IMG/VR virus record: IMGVR_UViG_3300025073_000989
Source of the DNA: a virus
Taxonomy: Duplodnaviria; Caudoviricetes
Direction: 5' to 3' (one strand)
DNA: 64,000 nt
The translations under genes were made by a program, and so were the position numbers. The notes under the pieces were generated by a model. It had not been told where the DNA came from, did no database searches, and worked only from the letters and a program-made list of their open reading frames with translations. The first letter of the stretch is position 1. Every line of letters begins with the position of its first letter. Positions 12,295-58,987 of this stretch are shown piece after piece.

Positions 12295-12416
12295 ATATAA
12301 CGCCTAAATAAGCCGCCGATATGTAGAGCGGTGGCGAAACTACAAGGAGAATTTGAATGAACAAACTTCGCAACAGAACAGAGCTTCTAGCGGCCGGCTT
12401 GATTTTTTTGTTGGGC
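12295..12416 (-). repeat. Integron attC site A1 (minus polarity)
   Basis: Ends ATATAAC...GTTGGGC on +; arms AAAT-AAGCC-GCCG / CGGC-c-GGCTT-g-ATTT with two unpaired bases on the right arm. Confidence 0.8.
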
Positions 12417-12635
12417 GTTTCGGCCTTGGCTGGGTGCACAGACGCAAAAATGAAACAGTTTACAGCCCTTGGGTCGCCAGGAGAGATTGTTTGTTTTTCT
12501 GGCGGTAAAGAAATTTACAAGGGAATTTCAACCGGGAAAATATCTACAGAACAAGGGAGTGACGGATGGTATTTCCAGGAGCAGACCACCGGAAAACTAA
12601 TCCGTGTTTCTGGCGACTGCCTTATTCGGAACTGA
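12357..12635 (+). CDS. Cassette-borne lipoprotein
   Basis: Signal peptide with lipobox LAGC; AAGGAG RBS and ATG lie inside attC A1. Confidence 0.75.
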   Translation: MNKLRNRTELLAAGLIFLLGVSALAGCTDAKMKQFTALGSPGEIVCFSGGKEIYKGISTGKISTEQGSDGWYFQEQTTGKLIRVSGDCLIRN

Positions 12636-12636
12636 C

Positions 12637-12724
12637 GCCCAACGGTATTTTAACCTGCCGCGCCTATGGCTTGGCAGCAAATGCGACCGCGCTGCTCGCG
12701 GTCAGGTTGAAAATTTTGTTATGA
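12637..12724 (-). repeat. Integron attC site A2 (minus polarity)
   Basis: GCCCAAC (complement of GTTGGGC in A1)...GTTATGA; arms ATTTT-AACCTG-CCGCG / CGCGG-t-CAGGTT-g-AAAAT. Confidence 0.85.
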
Positions 12725-12754
12725 TGCGTAAGTTTTATTCCATTTTTTAAAAAG

Positions 12755-13945
12755 GTGAATTGTATGAAACAAGTAATTTCTACGGAACAGAAGCCTATTA
12801 AGTTGTGGTTGGATGATATTGAAGACGGGGCGCTTGCCCAAGCCAAGAACCTTGCCAACCTTCCTTTTATTTTCAAGCACATTGCTATTATGCCCGACTC
12901 GCATCAAGGCTACGGAATGCCTATTGGCGGGGTCATGGCCACACAGGGCGTTGTTGTCCCGAACGCTGTCGGTGTTGATATCGGATGCGGCATGTGCGCC
13001 CTCAAGACTTCCATTGCTACCCTTGACCAAGCAACGCTGAAAAAAATTATGGGCGGCTCGAAGGAATATAAAGGCGGCATAAGAAGTGCTGTGCCAGTCG
13101 GGTTTTCGCACCATTCTAAAAAACAGGACGAGGGATTGATGCCAAGAATTACAACTGGCTTGCCAATTGTTGAGAAAGAATACAGTTCCGCCTTGAAGCA
13201 GATCGGAACCCTTGGCGGAGGCAACCATTTTATTGAGATACAACAAGGCAATGATGGATTTGTGTGGTTGATGATCCATTCCGGCAGCCGGAATATAGGG
13301 TTTAAAGTGGCGCATCATTATAACGATGTGGCTATTTCTCTGAATGAGCGGTGGCGTTCTGCTGTACCGGCAAACTGGCAACTGGCGTTTTTGCCTTTGG
13401 ATAGCGAAGAAGGGCGAAGTTACTTGGCGGAAATGCAATACTGTGTTGATTTTGCGCTTGCCAGCCGGGGGCTTATGATGGAGTTGGTTAAACGTTCTAT
13501 TGTTGAGGTGATTGCAGATGTTACTTTTGGCGATATCATAAACATTGCCCATAACTACGCCACTATGGAGCACCACTTTGGAACAAACGTGATGATTCAC
13601 CGTAAGGGGGCTACAAAAGCCTACCCTGACCAACTTGGCATTATTCCCGGCAGCCAAGGGACTGCAAGCTACATCGTTCGGGGTAAGGGTGAACCTGAAA
13701 GTTTTATGTCTTGTTCTCATGGTGCCGGTCGCAAGATGGGGCGCAAACAAGCCGAGCGAGAACTTGACCTTAATGCCGAGATTGAAAGGCTTGATTCTAT
13801 GGGCGTTATTCATGCAATCCGATACCAGAAAGATTTAGATGAAGCACCAGGGGCTTATAAAGATATTTCTACCGTGATGAGTAACCAAACTGATTTAGTT
13901 GATATTGCAGTGGAACTAAGGCCACTGGCGGTTATTAAGGGGTAG
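12755..13945 (+). CDS. rtcB: RtcB RNA 2',3'-cyclic phosphate/5'-OH ligase, cassette-borne
   Basis: MPDSHQGYGMPIGG, VGVDIGCG, GTLGGGNHFIE, MIHSGSR, IHRKGAT, SCSHGAGR, DEAPGAYKDI; visibly GC-richer than flanks. Confidence 0.95.
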   Translation: MNCMKQVISTEQKPIKLWLDDIEDGALAQAKNLANLPFIFKHIAIMPDSHQGYGMPIGGVMATQGVVVPNAVGVDIGCGMCALKTSIATLDQATLKKIMGGSKEYKGGIRSAVPVGFSHHSKKQDEGLMPRITTGLPIVEKEYSSALKQIGTLGGGNHFIEIQQGNDGFVWLMIHSGSRNIGFKVAHHYNDVAISLNERWRSAVPANWQLAFLPLDSEEGRSYLAEMQYCVDFALASRGLMMELVKRSIVEVIADVTFGDIINIAHNYATMEHHFGTNVMIHRKGATKAYPDQLGIIPGSQGTASYIVRGKGEPESFMSCSHGAGRKMGRKQAERELDLNAEIERLDSMGVIHAIRYQKDLDEAPGAYKDISTVMSNQTDLVDIAVELRPLAVIKG

Positions 13946-13947
13946 CA

Positions 13948-14034
13948 TCATAACGCCAAAATAAGCTGTGCCGCCTATAGCGGTGCAGCAAAAACACCGG
14001 ATTTCCCGGCATCAGCTTAATTTTATTGTTATGC
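13948..14034 (-). repeat. Integron attC site A3 (minus polarity)
   Basis: TCATAAC (complement of GTTATGA in A2)...GTTATGC; arms AAAAT-AAGCTG-TGCCG / CGGCA-t-CAGCTT-a-ATTTT. Confidence 0.85.
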
Positions 14035-14357
14035 CATTCGTGGCGAGGAATTTCCTAATGGTTAAAATGAAAATAATTGACATCGATGGTGGCATCGGCA
14101 TGGAGTTCCCGAATGGTGTGGACTGCCTCAAGCAACATGGATTCGGGATGTTTCTTGAGTCCTGGGCGGATGGGGAATTGGTGATTACGCCAGAGGCAAA
14201 AAGGGCAATCCTCGAACACGGCAAGGAAATGAGTTTGGGAGGTATCGCGTTTTTCGATCAAAAAATGATCGGATTCATGCAGAACGAGATTCCTTTCGAT
14301 GGCATATCGGTTAACGGGAAATCCAAGGATTGGATTCGGGAGTTACCAGAGGCATAA
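13968..14357 (+). CDS. Cassette-borne hypothetical protein (start uncertain: 13968, 14031 or 14058)
   Basis: ORF fills the space between A3 and A4; its stop TAA is part of GGCATAA, the core-site complement. Confidence 0.6.
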   Translation: MPPIAVQQKHRISRHQLNFIVMPFVARNFLMVKMKIIDIDGGIGMEFPNGVDCLKQHGFGMFLESWADGELVITPEAKRAILEHGKEMSLGGIAFFDQKMIGFMQNEIPFDGISVNGKSKDWIRELPEA

Positions 14358-14435
14358 TATCGCTGGCGTAACCAGCCTGTCGCACATGAAAGGAGATTGA
14401 CACCATGACAACGCCTATTGACGTAATTGTTAGCT
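14352..14435 (-). repeat. Degenerate attC site A4
   Basis: GCATAAT (one mismatch to the GCATAAC expected from A3)...GTTAGCT; partial arms GGCGT/ACGCC and TGTC/GACA. Confidence 0.5.
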
Positions 14436-14638
14436 GGGTGCGCTACCAAGCGCGAATGTTTAAGCACCGACCACGGATGTTGTGGAACCGCGCATTCGTG
14501 CGGAAAAATGAGTTTCACAACAGCCTCGATATGGATGTCCGGTCGATGTACGACATGAACACTGAAGACCGGCAGCGATACATTGCCGATTTGATACGCC
14601 GCAGGAACATTGCACATGAGCGTGACATTGATAGCTAA
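14405..14638 (+). CDS. Cassette-borne hypothetical protein
   Basis: AAGGAG RBS and ATG inside A4; ends at AGCTAAC (14633-14639), the complement of GTTAGCT. Confidence 0.65.
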   Translation: MTTPIDVIVSWVRYQARMFKHRPRMLWNRAFVRKNEFHNSLDMDVRSMYDMNTEDRQRYIADLIRRRNIAHERDIDS

Positions 14639-14642
14639 CACA

Positions 14643-14698
14643 ATATGATATGAAATTTAACAGTGTCTGTATAGCACTAGTTAAGTTTCATATCATAT
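14643..14698. other. Long AT-rich hairpin at the array boundary
   Basis: ATATGATATGAAA-t-TTAAC-AGTG...CACT-a-GTTAA-g-TTTCATATCATAT. Confidence 0.7.
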
Positions 14699-14739
14699 AT
14701 ATTTTTAATGAAATATATATATAAGGATGAATATATGGT

Positions 14740-15165
14740 ATGAATAATGAGAATTTGGTACTGGGAAGTAAAGTAAGAATAGGTATAGTAGAAGACAAAG
14801 AGCCACAAACAATAGAAGAACGTTTAGCCCGTTTAGAGGAAAAACTAAAAGCAATGATAGTAGCTTTTAACGCAACTAAAAGTATATTAAAAACTAAACA
14901 GAACCGAGATGAAATAGACGACAAAGTGTTTGGTGTAGATAAGAATAGGGATGGTATACCTATAGATACGGTTTTATTCGGAGTTACCAAAAGTATACCG
15001 TATATTTTAATCGTAAATAAGGAAGGTGAGTACATAGTTGGAAATAAAAAATATACTACACTATCTTCAGCAGCAGAAGAAATAAGCGGTGTAAGAAGAA
15101 GTGGTTGGGTTTTTTGGAAACTGCCTGACGGAAGGACAGCCAAAGAGGTATTTAGAAAAAGGTAA
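14740..15165 (+). CDS. RAMA-like domain protein with N-terminal coiled coil
   Basis: C-terminal YTTLSSAAEEISGVRRSGWVFWK resembles the S.SaAA...nGW.FW RAMA signature. Confidence 0.6.
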   Translation: MNNENLVLGSKVRIGIVEDKEPQTIEERLARLEEKLKAMIVAFNATKSILKTKQNRDEIDDKVFGVDKNRDGIPIDTVLFGVTKSIPYILIVNKEGEYIVGNKKYTTLSSAAEEISGVRRSGWVFWKLPDGRTAKEVFRKR

Positions 15166-15737
15166 TGGCTAAAAACAAAAAAGCAAAAAAGAGAGACAAA
15201 AATAGCAGAAAAGTAGCCATTAAACGTTTTATAAGAAATATCTGCGAAGAAAAGTGTAGTCTCTGCGACGTTGTAAATTATCTAGTTGATCTACCACCAG
15301 ACTTTATTTTTTGCTACGACCGAGTATATTTAAATAATACAAAGAAATTTAACTGTGTAGTTTTAAAAAAACTTAGAAAAATAAAAACATGGAACTATAA
15401 TACTTCCATGGACCCAACAGAGGGTGAAATATTAGTATTTACATATTTATTTTGTGATTCAGAAATCTGCAGTAAAGAAATAAAAGTTCTTGATGATAAG
15501 GGAATGTGTCTTAGTATAAAGAACTGTTTAGAGAAATTCAGATTACACGTTATTCCGGATAACTATGCAGTAGAAAACATGTTTCCAGTAGAAGAAGAAA
15601 AAAGTAGAAGAGTAAAAAAGCTGAAAATACAAAAGAAACCTAAAAAAAAAGAACCAACACTGTGTTTCTTTTCAAACATGAATGAGGAGCAACTTAGAGT
15701 GCATCTAGAAAAACTAAATGAAGATAACAATAGCTGA
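15165..15737 (+). CDS. Cys-containing basic hypothetical protein
   Basis: 190 aa ORF overlapping neighbours; CEEKCSLC near the N-terminus. Confidence 0.55.
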   Translation: MAKNKKAKKRDKNSRKVAIKRFIRNICEEKCSLCDVVNYLVDLPPDFIFCYDRVYLNNTKKFNCVVLKKLRKIKTWNYNTSMDPTEGEILVFTYLFCDSEICSKEIKVLDDKGMCLSIKNCLEKFRLHVIPDNYAVENMFPVEEEKSRRVKKLKIQKKPKKKEPTLCFFSNMNEEQLRVHLEKLNEDNNS

Positions 15738-17130
15738 CCAAATAAAACTATACAACGTACCAGAAGTAATCAAAAACGCTCTACTTGCTGAACTACGATT
15801 TGTTAACCCTAAATACACAGAAGCAAAAAAACAAGGGTACTGGACAGGAAATATTGAAAAATATATTACAAATTTTAATATACTCCTAGACGGAGCCATT
15901 CAAATGCCCAGAGGTATGCTAAGCTTTATATTAAAACTAGCAAAAAGTATAGAAGAAGAAATTGAAATAAACGATGAAAGAACCAGATTTTTACAAAACT
16001 TTGAAATTGATTCTTCAAATATAAAACTACGCCCTTACCAAATGAAAGGTATTAGTGACTTAGTAGGAAATGGGGATAATGGTCTACTAGTTTCAAAAGC
16101 TGGTAGTGGAAAAACAATAATGGGGATTTCATTAATACCATTACTGGGTCAACCAACATTGTGGATTACACACACTACACCCCTAATTAATCAGGTATTG
16201 GAACGTATACATCAATTTTTACCAAGCTTAATTAATGATGATTTAGGTTATATTGGTTCTGGAAAGTGGAAAGTTGGTAATGTAGTAACAGTAGCTATGG
16301 TTCAGACTTTAGTAAGAAGTTCGGAAAAATTAAATACACTAAAAAACAGATTTGGTTTAATAGTAGTAGATGAAGTACATCATGCTCCTAGTACTACGTT
16401 TACAACTGTATTAAAACAATTGAATCCTTATTATTTATATGGTCTTACGGCTACTCCTTATAGAAAGGATGGACTAGAAAAACTAATGTTTCAAACTGTG
16501 GGAGAGTTGTGTTCTGTAATACCAATAGAAGAGATAAAAAAAAGCGGTGGTATTTTAACACCAACTGTAATAAAAAGAAGAATAAGTTCTCCTACAACAA
16601 TTTTAACCGATGATTTTCAAAAAATTATAAACGGCTTGGTATATGATAGCTACAGAAATCAAACAATTGCTAACGATGTTTTAATAGAGGCTAGAAATAA
16701 TAACACCTGTATAGTAATCACAGATAGAAAGATTCATGCTGAATTACTATATACAATAATAAAAAAAGGTTGGCCAAAAACCACTATAGCTACCGGTAAC
16801 TATAGTAAAAAATATGTAAGAGAACAAATAGATAAATTAGAAAAAAAAGAAGTAACAGTACTAATAGCCACTGGGGCTTTATTGGGAGAAGGATTCGATT
16901 ATGCTCCGTTAAATAGATGTTTCCTTGGATTACCTTTTAGAAATGTAGTAAAAATTGAACAAATTATAGGTAGAATACAAAGACCAGCAATTGGAAAAAA
17001 AGATGCCATATTGTATGATTACGTAGACGACCATGGTTTATTAAAACATCAATTTTTTAATGAAGGCGTTAAAGGATGCAGATATAATGTTTATAAAAAC
17101 ATCGGAGCAACTATTGTAGAAAAAAAATAA
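15718..17130 (+). CDS. Superfamily 2 DEAD/DEAH helicase
   Basis: LRPYQ, KAGSGKT, VVDEVHH, GLTATPYRKDG, EGFDY, QIIGRIQR. Confidence 0.9.
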   Translation: MKITIADQIKLYNVPEVIKNALLAELRFVNPKYTEAKKQGYWTGNIEKYITNFNILLDGAIQMPRGMLSFILKLAKSIEEEIEINDERTRFLQNFEIDSSNIKLRPYQMKGISDLVGNGDNGLLVSKAGSGKTIMGISLIPLLGQPTLWITHTTPLINQVLERIHQFLPSLINDDLGYIGSGKWKVGNVVTVAMVQTLVRSSEKLNTLKNRFGLIVVDEVHHAPSTTFTTVLKQLNPYYLYGLTATPYRKDGLEKLMFQTVGELCSVIPIEEIKKSGGILTPTVIKRRISSPTTILTDDFQKIINGLVYDSYRNQTIANDVLIEARNNNTCIVITDRKIHAELLYTIIKKGWPKTTIATGNYSKKYVREQIDKLEKKEVTVLIATGALLGEGFDYAPLNRCFLGLPFRNVVKIEQIIGRIQRPAIGKKDAILYDYVDDHGLLKHQFFNEGVKGCRYNVYKNIGATIVEKK

Positions 17131-17182
17131 ACACAATGAAGGAAGGACATATTAGCTATGCGATAGTTTAAGGACAAAATAT

Positions 17183-18325: not shown

Positions 18326-18351
18326 TAACTATTAATAGCAGGAGTAATTTA

Positions 18352-20028: not shown

Positions 20029-20038
20029 GGTTTAATTA

Positions 20039-20851: not shown

Positions 20852-20860
20852 ATTAGAATT

Positions 20861-21664: not shown

Positions 21665-21667
21665 CGT

Positions 21668-26257: not shown

Positions 26258-27025
26258 ATGCCGAATTGGACGTATGAGGGTGTTGATTATATTGTAGTAG
26301 AATTGGTAAATAAAGCAAAGATGATCAACGGTGTGTCCTCTATAGTAGCCGAACAAGATGTTGTACGTGGATTATTTGCTGGACTAAAACTAATTCCAGG
26401 AAACAGTAAAGAAAAAAGTAAATATTTTTGTTTAGTAAAGAAAGGAAACAACTATGAAATGTTGAATATGAATTTATGGTTGATCCTATCGATAGAAAAG
26501 CTGGCTAAATCAGTCAAAAGGCTTCTTTTATTTAGAATGCATGAAGAAGATCAAAAAGTAGCTACTGAAGTATTATTTGAGGCAGTTACTTCTTTTGTAG
26601 AACAGCAACTAATAATTCCAAATACTCTAATAATAGATACAACTAAATATAAAAACCCATCTGCTGCCGGCGAAGGTAATTATAAATATAAAAACCCATC
26701 TGCTGCCGGCGAAGGTAATTATAAATTTGCAAATACTAAACCAGCAAGTATTAATATAGATTATATAAATATAAACACGGCTAATAGTACAAGTACAACT
26801 TATAACGGTGTTAGTTCACCAGCTATTACAGTAATCAAAAGAAAAAGTAAAAAACCAAGTACAAAAGATTTGACAAACATGATGGAACTGGTTACTTTAT
26901 TAGCAAAGGGAGAATATAAAGCACCAGCAATTCCTATAATTAAAGAAAAAGAAAACAACGAAACCGTTGTTGATTATAATCCGTATATAAGAGACGCGGC
27001 TTTTGAAAACGAGTACTGTTGTTAG
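26258..27025 (+). CDS. Hypothetical protein with internal duplication
   Basis: 255 aa ORF; contains KYKNPSAAGEGNY twice. Confidence 0.6.
   Translation: MPNWTYEGVDYIVVELVNKAKMINGVSSIVAEQDVVRGLFAGLKLIPGNSKEKSKYFCLVKKGNNYEMLNMNLWLILSIEKLAKSVKRLLLFRMHEEDQKVATEVLFEAVTSFVEQQLIIPNTLIIDTTKYKNPSAAGEGNYKYKNPSAAGEGNYKFANTKPASINIDYININTANSTSTTYNGVSSPAITVIKRKSKKPSTKDLTNMMELVTLLAKGEYKAPAIPIIKEKENNETVVDYNPYIRDAAFENEYCC
26644..26726 (+). repeat. 39-bp in-frame tandem duplication
   Basis: taaatataaaaacccatctgctgccggcgaaggtaatta x2. Confidence 0.95.
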
Positions 27026-46531: not shown

Positions 46532-46870
46532 CTACTGAAGGCCCCCATGCCCTGTACTTGTAGCAGACAAATTAGTTCTTGCCACAGTTAAATCACCAAA
46601 ATCTACGGCATTACCAGTAGATGCGATAGTAACATAGTCAATAATATTTGAGTTTGACCCTGTGGTTCCTCCACCAAACAATGCTCTTGTCGATGACCCA
46701 GATGAGGCCAAACCGGTTCTTGCAATTGTTAAATTCCCAAACGTAGTTAAATTAGCTAAACTCTCAATATTACCATAGTCAATAACCTTTGAATTAGAAG
46801 ATACAAATCCCCCAGCAAACAATGCTCTTGTTGCAACACTACTATAAGAAATAAACCCAATAGTAAACAT
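46532..46870 (-). CDS. Short beta-propeller-repeat protein (TIASTGNAxDFGDL repeats)
   Basis: Two repeats; ends GHGGLQ like 47307-48536; own AAGGAG RBS. Confidence 0.7.
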   Translation of the reverse strand: MFTIGFISYSSVATRALFAGGFVSSNSKVIDYGNIESLANLTTFGNLTIARTGLASSGSSTRALFGGGTTGSNSNIIDYVTIASTGNAVDFGDLTVARTNLSATSTGHGGLQ

Positions 46871-46884
46871 ATATATATCACTCC

Positions 46885-47274
46885 TTATGATATAAGATTA
46901 CCAAGTAAGTACCATGTGTTTGTACCTTCTTTTACTAAAGTTACGCCTACATATTGAGCAGCTATTGATAAGTTTCCTGCCTGTGAGTTAATAGTTACAC
47001 CACCAGCAGCAGCAAACGTAACCTTTCCAGCACCCTTTTGGATTACATCTATTTGTGTATCTCCTATAGGGAAAGCAACAGTATCATTAGCAGGAACAGT
47101 AACAGTAACAGGACTAGCATTATTCAATGTTACCTTTTTGTCTGTTAATACAAACTGGTAGGTAGTTCCTGTTTGTGCGTTAATAGTAGGTGCAGCATCC
47201 GCAAAAGCAGGAGTAGTTGCTATTTGATTATAAGCTCTGATCGTATTTAGTATGTGGTCTGATAATTTAGACAT
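46885..47274 (-). CDS. Fibre adaptor-domain protein
   Basis: NAQTGTTYQFVLTD..VTVPAN..IDVIQ..WYLLGN, homologous to the N-terminus of 47307-48536. Confidence 0.7.
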   Translation of the reverse strand: MSKLSDHILNTIRAYNQIATTPAFADAAPTINAQTGTTYQFVLTDKKVTLNNASPVTVTVPANDTVAFPIGDTQIDVIQKGAGKVTFAAAGGVTINSQAGNLSIAAQYVGVTLVKEGTNTWYLLGNLIS

Positions 47275-47306
47275 TTCTATTCTCCTACATTTTTTTAATA
47301 AATTAT

Positions 47307-48536
47307 TTAAACTTGTAGTCCACCATGGTTTGAAGACGCCCCTGAAGAAAAACTCCTAGCAACCGATAAATCCCCAAAATCTGTGGCATTTCCTGTTGAA
47401 GAAATAGTTACATAGTCAATTACATTTGAATTGGAGCCTGTATATCCTCCAGCAAAAAGAGCTCTTGTATTAGAAGATACTGCACCTCCATTTTCTCTAG
47501 CAACCGATAAATCCCCAAAATCTGTGGCATTTCCTGTTGATGCTATAGTTACATAATCAATTACATTAGACAACGTCGGTACACTATTAGTTCCTCCAGC
47601 AAATATAGCTCTAGTAGACGAAGACGTAGCCGCAGTGTAACTACGTATTACAGACAAGTTACCAAAATTTAAAGCATTTCCAGTAGATGCTATTGTCATG
47701 TAGTCAATATTTATAACAGATAACGTTGTCCAGCCTCCTCCAAATAAAGCCCTAGTTGGAGAAGCCGCTCCCCCTGAAGTAAGTCTACTTCTAGCAGCAG
47801 TTAGATCCCCAAAATCTATAGCATTTCCTGTTGATGCTATAGTTATATAGTCAATTACATTTGAATTGGAGCCTGTATATCCTCCAGCAAAAAGAGCTCT
47901 TGTAGAATTAGAAGCCGATGATAGCTGACTTCTACTCACAGTTAACGTACCAAAATCTACAGCATTACCAAGAGTCGCTATTGTTATGTAGTCGGCAACA
48001 GAAGAGTAGGTAGTACCAAAACCTCCCCCAGCTATAAGCCTAGTAGTTGAAGACGCTGCAACGGCAGAATATCTATACATAGTAAGCTCCCCAAAATAGG
48101 TCGCATTGCCTAGTGTTTCTATTGTTATATAATCCAGTACCGTTCCTGAATTACCACCCACAAATACCGCTCTTGAGCCCATGGGCGCTATATAAACTAT
48201 ATCCCCGGTTAAATACCAAGTGTCAATTGAAGATTGTACTAAAGACACTTTACTGTATTGAGTATTAGTTGAGTAACTATTGGCCCTAGATTTAATTGTT
48301 ACACCGTTAGCCGCTGAAAAAGTTAAACCACCATTGCCGGCCTGAATAACATCAATACAGGTTTTAACAGAAAAAGCAACAGTAGAGTTTGCTGGAACTG
48401 TAACCGATATTGTAGTTGGGTTATTCAAAACAACCACACCATCTTTATCCTCAAGTACAAACTGATATGAGCTGGTATTTTGTGTGTTAACGTTCCCAAG
48501 ACTAGTACCAGTAATAAAATTAGACAATTTTAACAT
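47307..48536 (-). CDS. Fibre protein: adaptor domain plus about six TIASTGNAxDFGDL propeller repeats
   Basis: Repeat unit RALFAGG...NVIDY(I/V)TIASTGNA.DFGDL; near-identical DNA repeats. Confidence 0.75.
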   Translation of the reverse strand: MLKLSNFITGTSLGNVNTQNTSSYQFVLEDKDGVVVLNNPTTISVTVPANSTVAFSVKTCIDVIQAGNGGLTFSAANGVTIKSRANSYSTNTQYSKVSLVQSSIDTWYLTGDIVYIAPMGSRAVFVGGNSGTVLDYITIETLGNATYFGELTMYRYSAVAASSTTRLIAGGGFGTTYSSVADYITIATLGNAVDFGTLTVSRSQLSSASNSTRALFAGGYTGSNSNVIDYITIASTGNAIDFGDLTAARSRLTSGGAASPTRALFGGGWTTLSVINIDYMTIASTGNALNFGNLSVIRSYTAATSSSTRAIFAGGTNSVPTLSNVIDYVTIASTGNATDFGDLSVARENGGAVSSNTRALFAGGYTGSNSNVIDYVTISSTGNATDFGDLSVARSFSSGASSNHGGLQV

Positions 48537-49307: not shown

Positions 49308-49313
49308 ATTATA

Positions 49314-51428
49314 TTAATCGTTTAATCTCCACCCTTTACTAGTATTGTAATAGACCAAAGAAAAAGAAGCATCATCGGTATCGATAGACATATCTTCAGC
49401 AGTACCCATTATATTAGACCCATTTCTAGCTACCGTAACACCACTAGTAGTACAATAAGACCCACCATCCAAAAAGCATACCTCATTGCCCATAGATGGT
49501 GAAGCAGGAAGAGTAACAGTAAAGGAACCTCCAACCGTTGTATCTATTATTATTCTATCACCATTTGAGGCAGTATAATTACTGGTTTTTAATATCCAAG
49601 GCTTTAGCCCAGAAGCGGCTGCTGGCTGGTTATATATAGCATTAACCCAATTATCTGCTATAGTTTCGAAGGTAAATTGAACTCTTAGTTTACCAGAAAC
49701 AATTGAAGCTGTATAATAGTCTGTATTATCTCTCTGTTTAACCCCATTATAAAATACCTGTAATCCATCAGGAACAATTGTAAAGTCATCTAGTGTAGAT
49801 TCCCAAACATCGCCAACACCACTTACCGTAGTAAAGACAAGATTAGTACTGACCATCTCTGTAACAGTACCACTAATGGTTACTGTTTGTGTCCCAGAAT
49901 CAAGATATAAGGTAATATTTCCTGCGCCTTCTAGATTTAATGTATCTTCATTTCCGTCAGCAGTAATTATATCTGTTCCATCTGTAAAATATTTAAATGT
50001 ATCTATAGCGGTTATTTGACCATCTAAAGTTCCAGACAGTGCAGCAATATTATCAGCATTTATTTTAATCTGATCATCCAATAAACTATCAGCATTTGCT
50101 AAGGATGTAGCAGCACTTATGTAATTAGTGCTCATATCAGGAGAATACGTCCCACTAGAGGTCAAACCTGCCCCTACTTGAGTAGTATCTAATTCTGATT
50201 CAACAGATATATTGGCGTACGAAGAATCATGGTCGTGACCTACCGGTGAGTATACCCCACTGTGATCATGCCCAGAATCTGCTTTTCCATCTATTTCAGA
50301 CTGTAGTGTTCCAGAAAGAGTGTCGATCTCGTTTTTTGTGTAATAACTTGAGTCATGGTCATGCCCTACAGGTGAATACACCCCACTATGGTCATGCCCA
50401 GAGTCAGATTTACCAGCAAGAGCGGTATCTAAGTCTTCTAAAGCCCCGCTTATAGTAGTAGCGGTATCAAGATAATTTGTACTAGAAAAAGGACTAAAAG
50501 TACCATCGGTGTTCAACCCTATAGCCGCCTCAATAAGGTTGATCTCGTCCGTATTAGCAGCAATACCGCTTAATGTACTTACAGCAAAATTAGGATCGTC
50601 GCCTAAAGCATCAGCTAGTTCATTTATTGTATCTAGAAGGGCTGGTGCCCCGCTAACCAATGTATAAATAGTTTGATCTAAAATTTCAGTGGCATCTTTT
50701 ATACTTGTAGATTCAGATAAGTAGGTATTAGGATATGTTGGAGCAGTATAAGTACCATCTGTGTTTAGTCCAGCACCAATCTGGGTATAGTCTATTTCAG
50801 ATTGTAGAGTGCCAGAAAGAGTATCAACTTCATTCTTTGTATAATAGCTTGAGTCATGGTCATGGCCTACAGGAGAGTACACTCCACTATGATCGTGTCC
50901 GGAGTCTGCCTTATTATCAATAGCTGCCTGTAATGTCCCAGAAGTAGTATCGATTTTTCCATCTAACGTTGTGTCTGTTTCAGACAGTGTATTTAAAGTC
51001 AATGCCATACTATACATGGACGTTCCTGGTATAGTGTGCCAAGTAGCTTCTTCACCAGAGATATTATAGAGCATCGCCCTAATGTAATTTAAATCATCCT
51101 CTAGGTTCTTAAAATAATGCTTGCTTCCTCCGGCGGCAGCGGCGGTCTCGGTAGGAGTTGGCGTAACTGTTGCATTGCTACCGTCTATACTAGAAATATA
51201 ATAAACTCCATTCGCAACAGAATCTACAACAACTATATAATTACCTACCTCTTCAGAGCTCAGCGATGCTGGACATCCTATGATGTTGGATCCAGAAGTA
51301 ACAGTAAATGTTAGGTTACTTTCATAAGGCCTACCTGTTAGTTCTGCATAAGCTACAGGTGTACTGGGGGTAAAGGCACCAGATCCATCTATTTGTACAT
51401 GTTGTTTAATTAGACTTCGGCTTCCCAT
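49314..51428 (-). CDS. Long tail-fibre-like protein with His-rich repeats
   Basis: ADSGHDHSGVYSPVGHDHDSSY three times; C-terminal YTASNGDRIIIDTT..TVTLPASPSMG..GWRL module of T4 gp34/cyanophage fibre type; start set to MGSRSL. Confidence 0.7.
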   Translation of the reverse strand: MGSRSLIKQHVQIDGSGAFTPSTPVAYAELTGRPYESNLTFTVTSGSNIIGCPASLSSEEVGNYIVVVDSVANGVYYISSIDGSNATVTPTPTETAAAAGGSKHYFKNLEDDLNYIRAMLYNISGEEATWHTIPGTSMYSMALTLNTLSETDTTLDGKIDTTSGTLQAAIDNKADSGHDHSGVYSPVGHDHDSSYYTKNEVDTLSGTLQSEIDYTQIGAGLNTDGTYTAPTYPNTYLSESTSIKDATEILDQTIYTLVSGAPALLDTINELADALGDDPNFAVSTLSGIAANTDEINLIEAAIGLNTDGTFSPFSSTNYLDTATTISGALEDLDTALAGKSDSGHDHSGVYSPVGHDHDSSYYTKNEIDTLSGTLQSEIDGKADSGHDHSGVYSPVGHDHDSSYANISVESELDTTQVGAGLTSSGTYSPDMSTNYISAATSLANADSLLDDQIKINADNIAALSGTLDGQITAIDTFKYFTDGTDIITADGNEDTLNLEGAGNITLYLDSGTQTVTISGTVTEMVSTNLVFTTVSGVGDVWESTLDDFTIVPDGLQVFYNGVKQRDNTDYYTASIVSGKLRVQFTFETIADNWVNAIYNQPAAASGLKPWILKTSNYTASNGDRIIIDTTVGGSFTVTLPASPSMGNEVCFLDGGSYCTTSGVTVARNGSNIMGTAEDMSIDTDDASFSLVYYNTSKGWRLND

Positions 51429-52541: not shown

Positions 52542-52567
52542 TTTTATAAACCCCCGTCATGCCCAAA

Positions 52568-53005: not shown

Positions 53006-53249
53006 TACTTTCTTCGCTCCCTATTAAATTTTTGATGTCTTTTGGTGTAAATTCACTGTCTTTGCTTTTCCCGTAAATCTTATGAGTTAAAAAAGTACCA
53101 TCTGGTTTTTCTATAACAACCGCTATATAACAGTCCTCCAGATAATAACATTCACAATAATATTTACATTTACAAGAATGGCTTATTTTGTAGTAATAAG
53201 TTTTACCATTAATTATTATTTTTCTTCTACCCCTTTTAGGCATTGTCAT
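52995..53249 (-). CDS. Hypothetical protein
   Basis: 84 aa; RRKIIINGKTYYY. Confidence 0.55.
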   Translation of the reverse strand: MTMPKRGRRKIIINGKTYYYKISHSCKCKYYCECYYLEDCYIAVVIEKPDGTFLTHKIYGKSKDSEFTPKDIKNLIGSEESNGD

Positions 53250-53266
53250 AGTTTTTGTACTCCTGT

Positions 53267-54034: not shown

Positions 54035-54263
54035 TTAATTCCGTATAATCTAAAGGATTACCACATCGTCTTAAATACCAACTTCCTCCGTCTACTGAAA
54101 CTGCACCGCAAGCACAGGACCTGTAATCGTGTCTATTTGTAGAACGAATTACTTCTCCACATAAATGACATCGTACTGAATTATTATAGATGGGCCCTAT
54201 ATTTAAACGGCTTCGTTCTTCCTTTGGTGTATCTATAGTTACAAAATTACGGTAGTACATCAT
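54012..54263 (-). CDS. Small zinc-binding phage protein
   Basis: RCHLCGEVIRS..HDYRSCACGAVSVDGG. Confidence 0.7.
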   Translation of the reverse strand: MMYYRNFVTIDTPKEERSRLNIGPIYNNSVRCHLCGEVIRSTNRHDYRSCACGAVSVDGGSWYLRRCGNPLDYTELSENFNDR

Positions 54264-55246
54264 ACTGGCCTCACATTATTAAAATACTTTATATCCAAAT
54301 CAAAAGTGTGTTTAATTCTAAGTTTGGCTATTTCAACATTTTTTGAATCCATTTCTATCCCCAAAAATTTTCTATTTAGTCTACGACAAGCTACGCCTAA
54401 AGATCCAGTGCCGCAGTAAATATCTACTACTAGTTGGTTTGGGCCACTTGTTAGCAACCGAACCAACCAAACTAAAATACCTAAGGGCTTGACAGAAACG
54501 TGCGTATTTTCAACCAAACCATTAGCTGTTTTTTCTTGACTGGAAGCTCTAGGACAATACTGAACATTGGTAGGAAGTGCACCCCTGGCAGAAGGAACCC
54601 AGCCCTTTCGACCTAATTTTTTAAATGTATTACTCTTAATATCAGACTGCATATGCATCTCGCCGGTATTTTCGAACCTTTTTATTATAGAGCTATGGTC
54701 TCCTTTATATGTCTGACGGGATTCTTCTAAATTTAGAAGATTTGTTTTATATAAATTCCAGTTGTTTAATTCAGAACCATCAAGCTTCTTCCTATATATT
54801 AAAATTGGGTTGTAGACGTTACGTAATTTACTACCGTAAGCTTCATCCTCCGTCCTGAAACCCTTAATATGAGTACCCTGTCCACACCACACCACCTGAT
54901 CCCTAAACTCAAATTGGGCTTGTGACATTCTTAGGCACAGTAACGGTACCATAGATGGCTGACAAAAAATGGCGATATGTCCACCAGGCTTAAGCTTGTC
55001 GTAGCAAAGATTCCAAATGTCTATGGACGGCATATCATCGTCCCAAGTTTCCATCTTAACTCCGTAAGGGGGATCTATAATAAAACAATGGACCGAACTA
55101 TCTGCTATTGTTGGTAAAATATCCTCACACCTTCCCTCTCTGACTTCAAAATCAGAACCCGCGCCAGTATATATTTCACTCTTCGGGTTATAGTTTTTTT
55201 CTCTAAATTCCTTGGTAAAAATATCATATATCATAGAATTGCTCAT
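54260..55246 (-). CDS. DNA amino-methyltransferase (N6-A/N4-C, beta class)
   Basis: Catalytic IIDPPYG precedes HVSVKP and SAM-binding VVDIYCGTGS. Confidence 0.85.
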   Translation of the reverse strand: MSNSMIYDIFTKEFREKNYNPKSEIYTGAGSDFEVREGRCEDILPTIADSSVHCFIIDPPYGVKMETWDDDMPSIDIWNLCYDKLKPGGHIAIFCQPSMVPLLCLRMSQAQFEFRDQVVWCGQGTHIKGFRTEDEAYGSKLRNVYNPILIYRKKLDGSELNNWNLYKTNLLNLEESRQTYKGDHSSIIKRFENTGEMHMQSDIKSNTFKKLGRKGWVPSARGALPTNVQYCPRASSQEKTANGLVENTHVSVKPLGILVWLVRLLTSGPNQLVVDIYCGTGSLGVACRRLNRKFLGIEMDSKNVEIAKLRIKHTFDLDIKYFNNVRPV

Positions 55247-55301
55247 TTATAATTTTCAATTAATCTATTATTACGTAAATAATTCCTTCGGAGTCGTCGG
55301 C

Positions 55302-56561
55302 TTAAACTAAGGCAGCGCTTTTCAGCGGCCGGCTAAAACGTCGTGTTTTAGGCCTTAGTAGCGATTTTCCTGTTTCAACCCGACCCCTATTTTCGGGAAT
55401 TGCTTCCCTATCGTCAAGTGGTTTTGCCGGTCCACAGGCTTTAGTAATTAAACTTCCCGCGCTCCTCGCGGTATTTAGTATCACCGTATTTTGGACGGTA
55501 TGCTTCAGTATAACCTGAGCTGCGGCTATATCTCTGTCGTGAGTTAGTCCGCAAGGGCATTTCCAGCTACGAATATTTAACGGGAGTTTCTCCGTAACAT
55601 AATTGCAATTAGGACAAACTCCTGTGCTTCGTTCGTATCTTGGATGTTTCAAAAGCTCTCTACCATTCCAGAGGGCTTTATGCGTTAAAAAAATGGTAAA
55701 CATGCCCCAGCCACAGTCTGTAACCGCACTGGCTAGCTTTCCCTGAGCTAAACTCGACACTTTTAGGTCCTCTATCGCTATCACTTGGTTTTCGCTTACG
55801 ATAGTGGTACTCAATTTGTGCAGGAAATCTTTCCGCTGATCACTTATTTTCTGGTGGAGATTTGCTACTTTTATTCTGGCTTTGGCTCTGTTAGAGCTTT
55901 TCTTCTTGGTTTTATTAAAACGTCTTTGGAGGATTTTAAGCTTCCTTTTAGACAGTTTATAAGGTATTGGTGGGGCAATTTTATCTCCGTCCGAAGTGGT
56001 AATAAAACTTTGAATACCAAGGTCAAGTCCGATCTTGTTATGAGACTTGAGCTTCATTGGTTTCGTGCAGTCGACCTGTAGAGAAACATACCAATCCCCA
56101 TTAGGCCTTTTTGAAATAGTGGCACTGTTGGGGAAGACTGGAACTTCATCAGACCATTTTACGTCGATTGGTCCTAACTTGGAAAGTTTTAGAAGTTTAC
56201 CTGATTGGAAGATATGAGTTCCCTGACGTTTATCCATTTGATAACACACGGAATTCTTGAACTTCTTAAACTTAGGATGCTCGGCTTCATGTCGGAAGAA
56301 CTTCTTATAGGCTTCATCCAAATCATACAAGGTGTTAGTCATTACCGTTACAGAAGCTTTTAAAAGCCAAGACTCATGCTTCTTAAGACAAGTTAAATCT
56401 CTGCTTAAGGTTACTACGTTGTGCTTAAATCCGTAGAGTTTGAACATGGAGTCTTTCTGATCCAGAGACCAATTCCAGACGAAGCGGGACGCAGCAAACT
56501 CCTTTTGGAGTTGTTTGCGCTGCTTAAGCGTGGGATAGATTCTGAATTTGAAAGCTCTCAT
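55302..56561 (-). CDS. tnpB: RNA-guided endonuclease TnpB
   Basis: AFKFRIYPT, RuvC IGLDLG / IAIEDL / HDRDIAAA, zinc finger CPNC..CPCG. Confidence 0.92.
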   Translation of the reverse strand: MRAFKFRIYPTLKQRKQLQKEFAASRFVWNWSLDQKDSMFKLYGFKHNVVTLSRDLTCLKKHESWLLKASVTVMTNTLYDLDEAYKKFFRHEAEHPKFKKFKNSVCYQMDKRQGTHIFQSGKLLKLSKLGPIDVKWSDEVPVFPNSATISKRPNGDWYVSLQVDCTKPMKLKSHNKIGLDLGIQSFITTSDGDKIAPPIPYKLSKRKLKILQRRFNKTKKKSSNRAKARIKVANLHQKISDQRKDFLHKLSTTIVSENQVIAIEDLKVSSLAQGKLASAVTDCGWGMFTIFLTHKALWNGRELLKHPRYERSTGVCPNCNYVTEKLPLNIRSWKCPCGLTHDRDIAAAQVILKHTVQNTVILNTARSAGSLITKACGPAKPLDDREAIPENRGRVETGKSLLRPKTRRFSRPLKSAALV

Positions 56562-56615
56562 TAATGCTCCTGATTAAGTTTAAAAATAGATCATACCATA
56601 CAAATTAGTTAAAGT

Positions 56616-56721
56616 CAAGTTAAATATTATAGAACGTAATATTTAACTCGTTCTTAGAAGCAAGTTAAATCTTATAGAACGTAATATTTAACTCGTTCTT
56701 AGAAGCAAGTTAAATCTTATA
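56616..56721. repeat. 45-bp tandem repeat (2 full units plus a partial) with internal inverted repeats
   Basis: caagttaaat(a/c)ttatagaacgtaatatttaactcgttcttagaag; AGTTAAAT/ATTTAACT and AGAACG/CGTTCT arms. Confidence 0.9.
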
Positions 56722-56750
56722 CTATTAAGGAAGCTAGTTAAACCCATGGA

Positions 56751-56880
56751 AAAATCGCCGCCGACGAAAGATACAACGCGCTACGACCTTCTGGCTAAGA
56801 GATACCAACCAGGTCGGCGGGCCGTAGCACATCCCTGTGCTACTTCAATGGCTGTCAAACAAGTAGCATTGAAAGATTTT
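56751..56880. ncRNA. GC-rich 130-nt multi-stem element, candidate structured RNA
   Basis: AAAATC/GATTTT closing stem, CCGCCGAC/GTCGGCGG, GTAGCAC/GTGCTAC, TTCAATG(G)CT/AGCATTGAA. Confidence 0.4.
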
Positions 56881-56908
56881 ACGTAAAAAACTTAACATAT
56901 TCAACCCC

Positions 56909-56956
56909 CTTCAACCAATACATCAACCTGACAAGCAGGTTATGTTTCTGTTGGGC
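56909..56956 (+). repeat. Short attC-like site B1 (plus polarity)
   Basis: CTTCAAC..ACAT-c-AACCTG-acaag-CAGGTT-ATGT..GTTGGGC; 48 bp, short for an attC. Confidence 0.6.
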
Positions 56957-57012
56957 CACATCTAGGTAGCCAGTTAATTTTAAATTCCTTCAATGATAAA
57001 GGAAGCTACATT

Positions 57013-57255
57013 ATGAACTTTGAAGACTTCAAAAATATAGTTCATTCAGAACCATACGAACGAGATAGTATTATTTACACTGTCTACGTAACATATGTTG
57101 ATAATCAATATTGTGGTTGGTGGTTTTGTGAAACATGTAATGTTAACTCAGATACAACCCCAAGTAAGCCATCAGATACAATTGAAAAAGCTATAATAGA
57201 TGCCAAAACTCATACAGGTGGACATCATTGGTCTAAACATCATCAAAGCACATGA
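57013..57255 (+). CDS. Cassette-borne hypothetical protein (sense to attC)
   Basis: AAGGAAG RBS; CxxC plus C-terminal His cluster. Confidence 0.6.
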   Translation: MNFEDFKNIVHSEPYERDSIIYTVYVTYVDNQYCGWWFCETCNVNSDTTPSKPSDTIEKAIIDAKTHTGGHHWSKHHQST

Positions 57256-57530
57256 GCAGGAATTAAACCACCGTATATTTCTAACTGCTCTGCTTTACAT
57301 AGATTATACAAAACTGGCTCAGGTACGATTTCCATACCAGGATACGGGTTTGTTTTAAAATTAACATTGACATCACTAGATAGTGAAATTGATAAATAAC
57401 CGTAAGTACCATCAGTGAATTTAATATCAACCCCTGTATGTGACCATTCTAATGTCTCTATTGTTTTACCTATGAAATCGTATAAAGGCATATTTGGATT
57501 TAATTCTTCTTTAGATTTTAGTTCTTTCAT
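57243..57530 (-). CDS. Cassette-borne hypothetical protein (antisense to attC)
   Basis: Minus strand GTTGGGC-AAAAGGAGGATTTATAT-ATG. Confidence 0.65.
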   Translation of the reverse strand: MKELKSKEELNPNMPLYDFIGKTIETLEWSHTGVDIKFTDGTYGYLSISLSSDVNVNFKTNPYPGMEIVPEPVLYNLCKAEQLEIYGGLIPAHVL

Positions 57531-57547
57531 ATATAAATCCTCCTTTT

Positions 57548-57640
57548 GCCCAACAAGTTAATCCAGCGGACGGCTGGAAGCTTGCTGAGGCGCTGCGCGG
57601 CGAGCTTATTGGCAGCCGCCGCTGATTAATAACGTTAGCA
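57548..57640 (+). repeat. Integron attC site B2
   Basis: GCCCAAC (complement of GTTGGGC in B1)...GTTAGCA; TTAATC-c-AGCGG-a-CGGCTG / CAGCCG-CCGCT-GATTAA. Confidence 0.9.
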
Positions 57641-57678
57641 AAACAATTACAAAACTTAAACCAACAAAGGAAACTCCT

Positions 57679-57933
57679 ATGAAAATCAAGTTTACATGGA
57701 TTAAAACTATTGATAACCCACAAGCCAGAACTTTTATAGAAAATAAAATTACTGAAATAATAAATTTAAAGAAATTTCCTGAGCATATCTATGAACAAAA
57801 TATTATCACCATACAATTAGAATCAAATAGAAAAGCTGAATATTCTGTGGACGGTATTATATTTGACCAAAATAATAAACAACTACACCGTTTTTCATTT
57901 GACTGTAGTAATGGTATCAACTCGCTAACATAG
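57679..57933 (+). CDS. Cassette-borne hypothetical protein (sense)
   Basis: AAGGA RBS; stop overlaps a core-like CGCTAAC at 57923-57929. Confidence 0.6.
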   Translation: MKIKFTWIKTIDNPQARTFIENKITEIINLKKFPEHIYEQNIITIQLESNRKAEYSVDGIIFDQNNKQLHRFSFDCSNGINSLT

Positions 57934-57936
57934 CAA

Positions 57937-58209
57937 TTAAATTTCGCGCGAAGAAGTGTTGTCCTCATTTATTGGGGTCTCTGGTTTCTGCTCAACTAAT
58001 CGGCTAATATCTGACATATTGTACCATATATGGTCGCCATTATATTTAACCATTATCCAGTCTTTAAAAAAGTGTATAAGGTAGGGTGTATAGTTATGAA
58101 CTTCCCCGTTCGTTTTAATTATGTGTAAATTTGCTTCAGGGTGTAATGAAGCTATATCATGACACATTTTATTTTCTGTTCGAACATCTTTAACTATTAA
58201 ACGTTCCAT
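57937..58209 (-). CDS. Cassette-borne hypothetical protein (antisense)
   Basis: AAAAGGAGATTTAT-ATG; RBS lies in a 12-bp inverted repeat 58209-58254. Confidence 0.6.
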   Translation of the reverse strand: MERLIVKDVRTENKMCHDIASLHPEANLHIIKTNGEVHNYTPYLIHFFKDWIMVKYNGDHIWYNMSDISRLVEQKPETPINEDNTSSREI

Positions 58210-58276
58210 ATAAATCTCCTTTTGTAGCCGCCAAACTTCGTTAGGAGATTTATAAAAAACCTAAAGAAAAACGGCG

Positions 58277-58366
58277 TGCTAACAACTGGTTCAACCTGAA
58301 CGGAACCAGCACTTGTTGTTTAAAAAATTACCCTTATTGGCCGTCAGGTTAACCAGGGTGTTATCT
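58277..58366 (+). repeat. Integron attC site B3
   Basis: TGCTAAC (complement of GTTAGCA in B2)...GTTATCT; TGGTT-c-AACCTGA-a-CGG / CCG-TCAGGTT-AACCA. Confidence 0.9.
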
Positions 58367-58391
58367 TCAAACTAAATAAAAATACTAAAAA

Positions 58392-58769
58392 ATGACTACA
58401 ACAATACTTGAATTAATTAATAACCACTGGACCACACTGATATCATTATTGATAACTATATGGTCTCTTTTAAGAAACTACAATTGGAAAAGAACATTAA
58501 GTATATACTTAAGTTTAATTGTAGATAACTCACATTCAGTTACAAAGTTAATAGCTGAGCATTGTGAAGACACTTGTATTAAACATAGTTCAGAAAACCT
58601 TAATCATCAAATAACTCATTTATTAAGTACCTTTCCAGCGCTGGCTAAAAAATGGATTTATATTAATAAACCAGAAGCTGAATGGCAGTCGTGGGAACAA
58701 AAACTTCAAATATCTATGGACACATACCGCTTGCGAAATCGCTTGCTAACTTTATTAAAACTGAAATAA
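58392..58769 (+). CDS. Cassette-borne membrane protein (sense)
   Basis: N-terminal hydrophobic helix; starts 25 nt after GTTATCT. Confidence 0.55.
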   Translation: MTTTILELINNHWTTLISLLITIWSLLRNYNWKRTLSIYLSLIVDNSHSVTKLIAEHCEDTCIKHSSENLNHQITHLLSTFPALAKKWIYINKPEAEWQSWEQKLQISMDTYRLRNRLLTLLKLK

Positions 58770-58887
58770 CAGCAACAGGTATTACAACATACTCAAAAAG
58801 TCCCATAAGTAACGGAGCAAAATCTATAATATCAAGTAAAGTAAAAATCATTACAGCAAATAAAACTAACATTACTATATTAAACAT
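58714..58887 (-). CDS. Cassette-borne two-helix membrane protein (antisense)
   Basis: Minus strand GTTATCT-GGAGGTGTAT-ATG (MFNIVMLV...). Confidence 0.6.
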   Translation of the reverse strand: MFNIVMLVLFAVMIFTLLDIIDFAPLLMGLFEYVVIPVAVISVLIKLASDFASGMCP

Positions 58888-58899
58888 ATATACACCTCC

Positions 58900-58987
58900 A
58901 GATAACAATTACATCCACCAGACGGCGAGAAGCTCGGAGTTTTTTATTCAAGCTTTTTAGCGCCGCTGGTGATGTAAGGCGTTATAC
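58900..58987 (+). repeat. Integron attC site B4
   Basis: AGATAAC (complement of GTTATCT in B3)...GTTATAC; TTACATC-c-ACCAG-a-CGGCG / CGCCG-CTGGT-GATGTAA. Confidence 0.9.

Follow-up and report, generated by a model that had tools for sequence, protein, structure and literature searches.

Two integron cassette arrays in the genome of a large phage, each with attC sites opposed to phage transcription and one sharing a cassette with a bacterial array

The DNA analysed here is a stretch of 64,000 nucleotides from virus record IMGVR_UViG_3300025073_000989 (Duplodnaviria; Caudoviricetes), referred to below as the window. It contains two arrays of integron gene cassettes, designated A and B, inserted among phage genes. 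The recombination sites which delimit the cassettes are genuine integron attC sites, and at both loci their top strand opposes the direction of phage transcription, being minus at the three sites of array A, which lies in a block of plus-strand genes, and plus at the four sites of array B, which lies in a minus-strand block. No integron integrase (IntI) was located in the window by tblastn with the IntI of a Desulfobulbaceae bacterium (nothing below E = 2.9), and the arrays were therefore filed as attC-site clusters with no integron integrase (CALINs). As phage CALINs they are unusual in possessing reversed and convergent cassette designs and in having a direct link to a bacterial integron.

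The attC sites were identified with a covariance model (R1) trained on five sites of the window together with two from related contigs. Applied to the 64 kb, it returned exactly seven sites, all in two clusters, with E-values from 4e-20 to 3.5e-3. The GC content of the window is ~32%, and all of the attC sites are contained within two short, GC-richer islands (12.3-14.6 and 56.7-59.0 kb). The interval singled out by an earlier sequence-only reading of this DNA, 12295-58987, begins with the first base of site A1 and ends with the last base of site B3. Every site shows the same design on one strand: YAAC, AA, six paired positions, a bulged C or T, six further paired positions, a bulged A and a variable tip, followed by the two complementary arms, a short spacer and GTT. 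When the opposite (bottom) strand is folded as DNA, the R boxes form a stem, next to which are a short spacer that remains unpaired and two single-base bulges 6 bp apart, the latter located on the 3' arm and mostly T and G. Alignment placed the bulges (C16 and A23 of the top strand) at the positions that they occupy in the attCs of aadA1, aadA2 and qacH, and the seven class 1 attCs of phage P1 L-II (MH445380) have the same invariant positions, including bulged C16 and A23. AAC and GTT are invariant in all seven window sites. The outer R'' and R' positions fit RYYYAAC/GTTRRRY only partly, which is expected since the R' boxes within an array are hybrids.

The boxes also chain as they do in an integron. 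Adjacent R'' and R' boxes are exact complements in five of the six testable cassettes (B1/B0, B2/B1, B3/B2, A2/A3 and A1/A2), as illustrated by GCCCAAC in R'' of A1 and GTTGGGC in R' of A2; the remaining case is the g3-g4 unit of array A, with its degraded junction at 14351. Outside the window, R1 matched seven class 1 attCs, three attCs of phage TJE1 and four of phage H101. Rfam has no attC family, and searches against it at both gathering and E-value thresholds gave noise only. A rule-based bulge scanner missed short or atypical attCs (B0 and the sites of contigs L001 and L005) and produced false matches in AT-rich structural genes of phage P12002L; detection therefore rests on the covariance model.

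Four independent lines of evidence agree on polarity. The sequence-only reading had taken the side carrying two extra bases to set the polarity of a site; the bulges do lie on the arm that it named, and scanning by bulge side placed all seven class 1 attCs of P1 L-II on the strand of their resistance genes and gave a minus top strand for array A and a plus one for array B. Secondly, R1, although built with the polarity called in this analysis, assigned the window sites to the strands claimed, not to the opposite ones that the sequence-only reading had named as grounds for rejection, and matched the seven class 1 and three TJE1 attCs on their true top strand only, with none on the opposite strand. 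The strand that it gave for the H101 and TJE1 attCs is consistent with the bottom-strand primers used by Qi et al. 2023 (PMC9892861), in whose assays the bottom strands were the more recombinogenic in H101 and TJE1 and the sites recombined with IntI1. Thirdly, the natural junctions of cassette c2, described below, place the crossover box R' at the right of each array B site on the plus strand, and the end that the RtcB unit has in common with contig L005 gives the same answer. Finally, a Desulfobulbaceae metagenome-assembled genome (MAG) contains a divergent IntI (387 bits, the cut-off being 265), and the attCs that R1 detects there are directed away from it, as in a classical integron.

With regard to the surrounding genes, all open reading frames (ORFs) of at least 150 amino acids that were accepted as genes lie on plus as far as 42287 and, from 43865 onwards, on minus. 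Two long minus ORFs within the plus block were recognised as shadows of RtcB and of a 141-amino acid gene and were not counted. The assignment of minus attCs to a plus block and of plus attCs to a minus block was thereby confirmed from R1 and the ORF strands, and at both loci the recombinogenic bottom strand is, as had been claimed, the mRNA-like strand.

Array A contains four genes, including one for an RtcB RNA ligase (Table 1), and, as the same reading had it, all four are on the plus strand, antisense to attC. ATATAA|C marks its left boundary and AGCTAA|C its right boundary, each being G|TT on the minus strand, and joining the flanks restores a single G|TT. This target would follow the stop codon of an SSB-like gene (Pfam E 0.009, which is below the family cut-off) by 9 nucleotides (nt) and would lie just before an AT-rich hairpin (14643-14698) that is probably the original terminator of this gene. 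The left junction is visible within A1, where R' is a hybrid with the G derived from the cassette and TTATAT from the phage. By eye, A1 had been considered a truncated half-site; this was rejected, both the model and the scanner having placed a second arm of the site within g1. Over 12357-12416, the R''-L'' arm of A1 also codes for the beginning of g1 and for the hydrophobic core of the lipoprotein signal peptide, such that the 5' end of a coding sequence overlaps a recombination site. The product of g1 has no Pfam match and only a weak PHROG match (E 0.006). Between g3 and g4 no intact attC was present, R1 giving nothing significant there. The nearest named relatives of RtcB are from Desulfobulbaceae and Electrothrix. 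From its family, this RNA repair ligase could plausibly act as a counter to host tRNA-cutting nucleases.

The cassettes of array B are constructed differently. They had been described as each possessing a minus-strand gene with a strong ribosome-binding site (RBS) at the attC edge, and this stands in part: there is a minus ORF in each of c2, c3 and c4, with the RBS abutting R'' in c2 and c4 and 55 nt away in c3, and each cassette also has a convergent sense ORF. As in a classical cassette, the plus ORF starts 25-57 nt beyond the preceding R', and the minus ORF meets it tail to tail. Both genes of c2 and both genes of c3 have a codon usage, scored with phage-trained values, that falls within the range of real phage genes and above every wrong-frame control. 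In a test of ORF length, pairs such as those of c2 and c3 appeared in none of 2000 shuffles. A copy of c2 that is 75% identical is present in contig L016; in this comparison both genes are under purifying selection, the order of attC, antisense gene and convergent gene is retained, and the RBS abutting R'' is conserved. The c2 antisense gene has a homologue at 71% identity. At the right end of the array, the junction at B3 follows the stop codon of phage gene 58995-59747 by 8-13 nt and is found again in six other contigs. The left junction could be G|TTAAAC at 56737.

Table 1. Features of arrays A and B and of their immediate flanks in the window (R1, covariance model; LLR, codon-usage log-likelihood ratio; aa, amino acids; IS, insertion sequence)
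Feature	Position	Strand	Description
attC A1	12295-12416	-	122 nt; R1 44.4 bits, E 2e-8; bulges on 3' arm of plus strand
g1	12357-12635	+	92 aa, lipoprotein-like, signal peptide ending LAGC; antisense to attC; start inside A1
attC A2	12637-12724	-	R1 77.3 bits; fold with two bulges on 3' arm of plus strand; 40 nt upstream of RtcB start
RtcB RNA ligase gene	12764-13945	+	Pfam PF01139, 1.5e-107; antisense to its attC
attC A3	13948-14034	-	R1 79.7 bits; fold z-score -4.4
g3	14058-14357	+	99 aa, antisense to attC; also called as a 99-aa gene on another contig
Candidate degraded cassette junction	14351-14404		GCATAA|T, matching A3 R'' GCATAAC, plus a short hairpin
g4	14405-14638	+	77 aa, antisense to attC
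Array A right junction	14633-14639	-	AGCTAA|C on plus, G|TTAGCT on minus; GC falls from ~47% to phage level
AT-rich phage hairpin	14643-14698		Inverted repeat just past array A
IS605-type element	55288-56740	-	tnpB at 55302-56561; upstream boundary uncertain; flanks array B
c1	56738-56908	+	GC-rich 170-nt stretch, degenerate cassette or attC remnant; no R1 match
attC B0	56909-56956	+	Minimal 48-nt site; R1 24.2 bits, E 0.0035; folds; R' GTTGGGC complements B1 R''
c2 sense gene	57013-57255	+	80 aa; LLR 0.17; dN/dS 0.21 against L016
c2 antisense gene	57243-57530	-	95 aa; LLR 0.22; dN/dS 0.12 against L016; RBS abuts B1 R''
attC B1	57548-57640	+	attC belonging to c2; R1 76.8 bits
c3 sense gene	57679-57933	+	84 aa; LLR 0.15; called as a gene on 7 contigs
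c3 antisense gene	57937-58209	-	90 aa; LLR 0.17; one relative, 40% identity, E 9e-12
attC B2	58277-58366	+	R1 71.8 bits
c4 sense ORF	58392-58769	+	125 aa; weaker coding signal, LLR 0.07, shuffle p about 0.035
c4 antisense ORF	58714-58887	-	57 aa, hydrophobic; RBS GGAGG abuts B3 R''
attC B3	58900-58987	+	R1 89.6 bits; R' G|TTATAC is the right junction of array B

The movement of cassettes could be followed with c2 (56951-57634), which is 100% identical in contig L008/L025 and 99.9% identical in L011, both of its neighbours being different there. The identity breaks exactly at the G|TT of the B0 and B1 R' boxes, and the whole body of B1 travels with c2. The contigs which hold c2 with other neighbours continue into a cassette array and then into Amt, P-II and TrkAH genes, at 55-60% GC. 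This Amt is 79% identical to that of a Desulfobulbaceae MAG, and an integron integrase scoring above the curated cut-off was found in 4 of 4 related MAGs and in 0 of 14 control genomes. In the Desulfobulbaceae-like array the attCs are all of one polarity, with twelve genes sense and two antisense, and one of the antisense genes is the 95-amino acid gene of c2. We consider a Desulfobulbaceae-type bacterium with integrons to be the likely donor and the likely host, judging from these sequence relationships.

The gene content of this array (L025 1-10400; L024 2600-11400) includes a 771-amino acid TIR-metallophosphatase-PNP protein, HNH and MazE/PIN proteins, an ankyrin protein and an IS200-type transposase, as well as a nucleotidyltransferase gene convergent with an 80-amino acid gene. 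It looks like a chromosomal store of defence genes. A further contig, L007/L024, joins window 63519-63885, the IS element, the stretch from c1 to B1 and then bacterial-type cassettes (L007/L024 1-480 compared with window 63519-64000). It represents either a further phage array beyond the window or an assembly chimera formed through exact repeats; the bacterial context of c2 consequently rests on L025 and L011.

The RtcB cassette was found elsewhere as well. Its end, TCATAA|C, is common to the window and L005, after which the two sequences diverge. L005 is an unrelated phage-like contig (DnaB, SSB, ERF) in which at least four plus genes including RtcB alternate with minus attCs, just after ssb. 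L001, which has a bacterial defence-island context, contains a minus-polarity, A2-like attC located 43 nt upstream of a plus-strand RtcB (81% identical). Thus, the reversed build is a conserved property of the cassette itself. RtcB cannot be regarded as generally a cassette gene, since its closest Electrothrix homologues are ordinary chromosomal genes and L004 has no attC nearby. Because c2 occurs at 100% identity in an array on a bacterial chromosome, the pool of cassettes extends beyond phages, and with the RtcB cassette and its upstream attC also present in a bacterial defence-island context the proposal of a phage-adapted cassette pool finds no support as it was stated.

Is the opposed orientation general among phage arrays? 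Besides the two window arrays, with cassette genes all antisense in A and half sense, half antisense in B, it is present in L005 (antisense genes) and in phage H101, where four attCs are plus and gp132-gp136 are all minus and antisense. The attCs are co-oriented with phage transcription, and the cassette genes sense, in TJE1, in P12002L (active attC2) and in virus Rctr41k, which has its own IntI and five chained sites that were found by the scanner only. Opposed polarity therefore accounts for four of seven arrays, a proportion indistinguishable from one half, and before Rctr41k was added the two-sided binomial p for 4 of 6 was 0.69. The tally leaves out five other CALIN phages listed by Qi et al. 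and ctTUS972; R1 recovered no site in any of these six and detected only one site of the Vibrio type, so that either the model is too narrow or the published predictions are weak. A gene-level Fisher test (34:4 against 8:15, p = 2.5e-5, also before Rctr41k) was rejected because genes within one array are not independent. The survey of attC and ORF strands that the sequence-only reading had proposed, carried out here on this small scale, does show that the orientation recurs in H101 and L005; it also shows that it is not universal, and any 'rule' is weak. What is more regular is the direction of the genes: in six of the seven arrays they share the direction of the phage genes on either side, however the attCs are oriented, and in array B they are evenly split. 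Among sampled bacterial arrays, some 90% of genes are sense (sense to antisense counts of 7:0 for class 1, 15:2 for a Vibrio chromosomal-integron fragment and 12:2 for the Desulfobulbaceae-like array).

Two of the comparison arrays have features of their own. In H101 (L125, NC_029094), nucleotides 2380-4490, a leader of ~50 nt together with an attC is duplicated before two minus-strand genes; all four attCs are plus and every gene of the region minus, on which the original paper makes no remark. In Rctr41k (L132, KX853513), nucleotides 4680-10101, an IntI-like integrase is co-oriented with five chained attC-like sites of ~128 nt, and the sense cassettes include two methyltransferase-like genes. 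The region resembles an entire integron carried by a phage, its integrase running in the direction of the cassettes.

How the arrays may have been acquired is suggested by their junctions. Loot et al. (bioRxiv 10.1101/2022.09.11.507474) found by deep sequencing of attC x attG insertions a consensus of G|WT and no bias by strand, replication direction or gene orientation. G|WT is the sequence at each end of array A and at the right end of array B. We propose, as an account that we hold to be probable though far from secure, that an integron integrase of the host, a Desulfobulbaceae-type donor, inserted cassettes into the phage chromosome by recombination between attC and secondary sites at G|TT. 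The points of entry would have been just after phage stop codons, 9 nt past in array A and, to judge by the end of the last attC, 8-13 nt past in array B. The cassettes are of a reversed type, with the start codon and RBS beside the R'' end of attC and the gene reading away from it, and those of array B carry a second, sense gene converging on the first. Such insertions are predicted to persist when useful genes run with the phage's own transcription, and it would be selection for co-transcription that fixes orientation; reversed cassettes under this selection would come to lie with the attC top strand against transcription and with an mRNA-like bottom strand. The analysis establishes what the sites are, their polarity, where the crossovers fall, that a bacterial array has a cassette in common with the phage and that both c2 genes are coding; integrase action, expression by read-through and selection we infer.

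This bears on the choice offered by the sequence-only reading, which had suggested a rule of either insertion or selection. Insertion by an integrase leaves the orientation of a gene with respect to its own attC unchanged; the antisense layout is thus built into the cassettes, and only the orientation of an array relative to the phage could follow either rule. Given that, and the lack of a published strand bias, array orientation is best explained by selection, which fits six of the seven arrays; exposure of a strand at insertion is unsupported, the attG data being unbiased.

Several observations weigh against the proposed account. The left junction of array B is obscured by the IS element (and c1). 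Contig L007/L024 may be an assembly chimera. The assignment of the host is indirect, and the GC content of the phage is 32%, that of the proposed donor 50-60%. The phage DNA of the window had no Megablast match in a phage collection. Protein-seeded scans of IMG/VR found no related phages, making a comparison with empty sites impossible; no phage variant with an empty site was found, and the insertion target is thus reconstructed rather than observed. Selection leaves the frequency of reversed cassettes in phage arrays unaccounted for, given that some nine-tenths of genes in the sampled bacterial arrays are sense. Lastly, the sense genes of array B are conserved even though they oppose phage transcription, and read-through by itself does not account for this.

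An extension of the account, which we offer as speculation and rather doubt, is that phage arrays preferentially hold a distinct class of reversed cassettes, with the gene starting at the R'' edge, which shuttle between them and host chromosomal integrons, that convergent pairs are orientation-proof, and that phages sample genes via host integrases. If this were so, one gene of a convergent pair might be read in the bacterial integron and the other in the phage, and virulent and giant phages would sample accessory or counter-defence genes, RtcB among them, by means of host integrases.

Among the alternatives, it has to be considered whether the state of the DNA, rather than the benefit of the genes, determines orientation. 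Arrays might preferentially be kept, or grow, when the bottom strand serves as non-template strand or as template for the lagging strand and is therefore more often single-stranded; resident attCs would then fold and capture more cassettes, and multi-cassette arrays would mostly be found in this orientation. The bottom strand is indeed coding-like in both window arrays, in H101 and in L005. The GC skew of the window flips where transcription flips and agrees with it in direction, as it could if replication and transcription proceed in the same direction. GC skew had been suggested as a means of inferring replication direction; the analysis was run, but because the skew follows transcription it says nothing separate on replication. 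The attG insertions were unbiased with respect to strand, leading or lagging template and gene orientation (bioRxiv 10.1101/2022.09.11.507474), TJE1, attC2 of P12002L and Rctr41k are of opposite polarity, and more folding would also favour cassette loss. We therefore regard strand exposure as unlikely.

Less credible again is chance, by which both arrays landed as they did by accident and their orientation has no functional meaning. The probability of two out of two window arrays being opposed is 0.25, which is not significant alone, and the wider tally is, as noted, indistinguishable from one half. Chance does not account for cassette genes following phage genes in six of seven arrays, for four array A genes co-oriented with their block between a gene and its presumed terminator, or for conserved RBSs abutting R''.

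Lower still we place a dedicated phage-associated integron lineage, in which phage-borne integrases serve reversed cassettes and the window arrays are orphan members. The reversed layout in H101 and L005 would be in keeping with this. However, IntI was found neither in the window nor in H101, TJE1 or P12002L; Rctr41k, the one examined virus with its own IntI, has sense cassettes; c2 sits in an ordinary, mostly sense bacterial array; and the attCs match class 1 attCs position for position. The last alternative, that the sites are phage terminators or repetitive extragenic palindromic (REP)-like hairpins, is very improbable and effectively refuted, for although they are intergenic hairpins that match no Rfam family, R1 matches bona fide attCs, the bulge positions are identical, neighbouring R'' and R' boxes chain as complements and cassettes are swapped exactly at G|TT.

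The IS605-type element beside array B has tnpB as its only gene; the Pfam families OrfB_IS605 and Cas12f1-like_TNB match the identical tnpB gene in L007. The last 115 nt of the element recur exactly at 63886-64000, from which it follows that a second copy runs off the end of the window, and its upstream end contains two 45-nt tandem hairpin repeats (56609-56698). Just beyond it, a minus-strand gene at 54260-55246 encodes an N6/N4 DNA methylase (Pfam 2.5e-26). Orphan methylases recur alongside the phage CALINs of Qi et al. 2023 (PMC9892861).

The large ORFs of the window include matches to phage families of tail fibre proteins, a helicase, an RNA polymerase beta-like protein and nicotinamide phosphoribosyltransferase. 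We treated the source as a very large phage of roughly 276 kb, one window protein being recorded on a contig of 275,832 bases. Scans for sigma-70 promoters and terminators returned no more than in shuffled sequence. A perfect 39-nt tandem duplication is present within a plus-strand gene (26644-26721), and diverged repeats with periods of 141 and 147 nt (also 126/501 nt) lie inside large minus-strand genes at 46536-48146 and 50224-50933. One of these genes matches tail fibre families, and the repeats probably represent repeated structural domains.

Integrons are usually seen as bacterial devices in which promoterless cassettes are read from one promoter. A giant phage with two arrays of opposite polarity, whose genes are placed to ride on phage transcripts, adds to this picture. 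That c2 matches a cassette of a bacterial chromosomal array base for base, both coming from the same samples, suggests that cassettes have recently passed between a host integron and a lytic-type phage. Perhaps the reversed and convergent designs, maintained by purifying selection, form a class of cassettes suited to life outside the integron platform, a question which can be tested.

Compared with known systems, the window arrays are closest to the phage CALINs of Qi et al. 2023 (Front Microbiol, PMC9892861): both are attC arrays without IntI in lytic-type phage genomes and both are next to or after terminator-like sites. Qi et al. describe the TJE1 and H101 cassettes as running in one direction in a typical bacterial structure and do not discuss polarity relative to phage transcription; once their primer table is mapped onto the genome, H101 has the same opposed polarity as the window. 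Unlike those phages, the window phage has two arrays; among their cassettes are convergent two-gene ones, one that carries RtcB and one identical to a cassette of a bacterial chromosome. With the single attC sites (SALINs) and small CALINs of Loot et al. the arrays have in common G|TT junctions (G|WT), the absence of attI and of a nearby intI and, presumably, dependence on neighbouring promoters for expression, but the target there is the bacterial chromosome and here a phage genome that has received several cassettes.

Class 1 cassettes (aadA1, aadA2, cmlA1 and dfrA; P1 L-II) are alike in their R'' and R' cores, bulges 16 and 23 and G|TT crossover. The window sites differ from them in having an unpaired spacer of 2-3 nt rather than 5, and in being 87-122 nt long (one of 48 nt) with branched tips. 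A class 1 cassette consists of a sense, promoterless gene followed by attC, whereas in the window an antisense gene starts beside R''; the classical layout, with a co-oriented gene and attC after it, is found for none of the four array A genes and for three of the six ORFs of array B. Sedentary chromosomal integrons, such as those of Vibrio, do contain inverted cassettes with their own promoters, mostly toxin-antitoxin pairs, which run opposite to transcription from the cassette promoter Pc. The window genes are not recognisable as toxin-antitoxin systems, and whereas inverted cassettes are a minority in bacteria, those of array A are all inverted.

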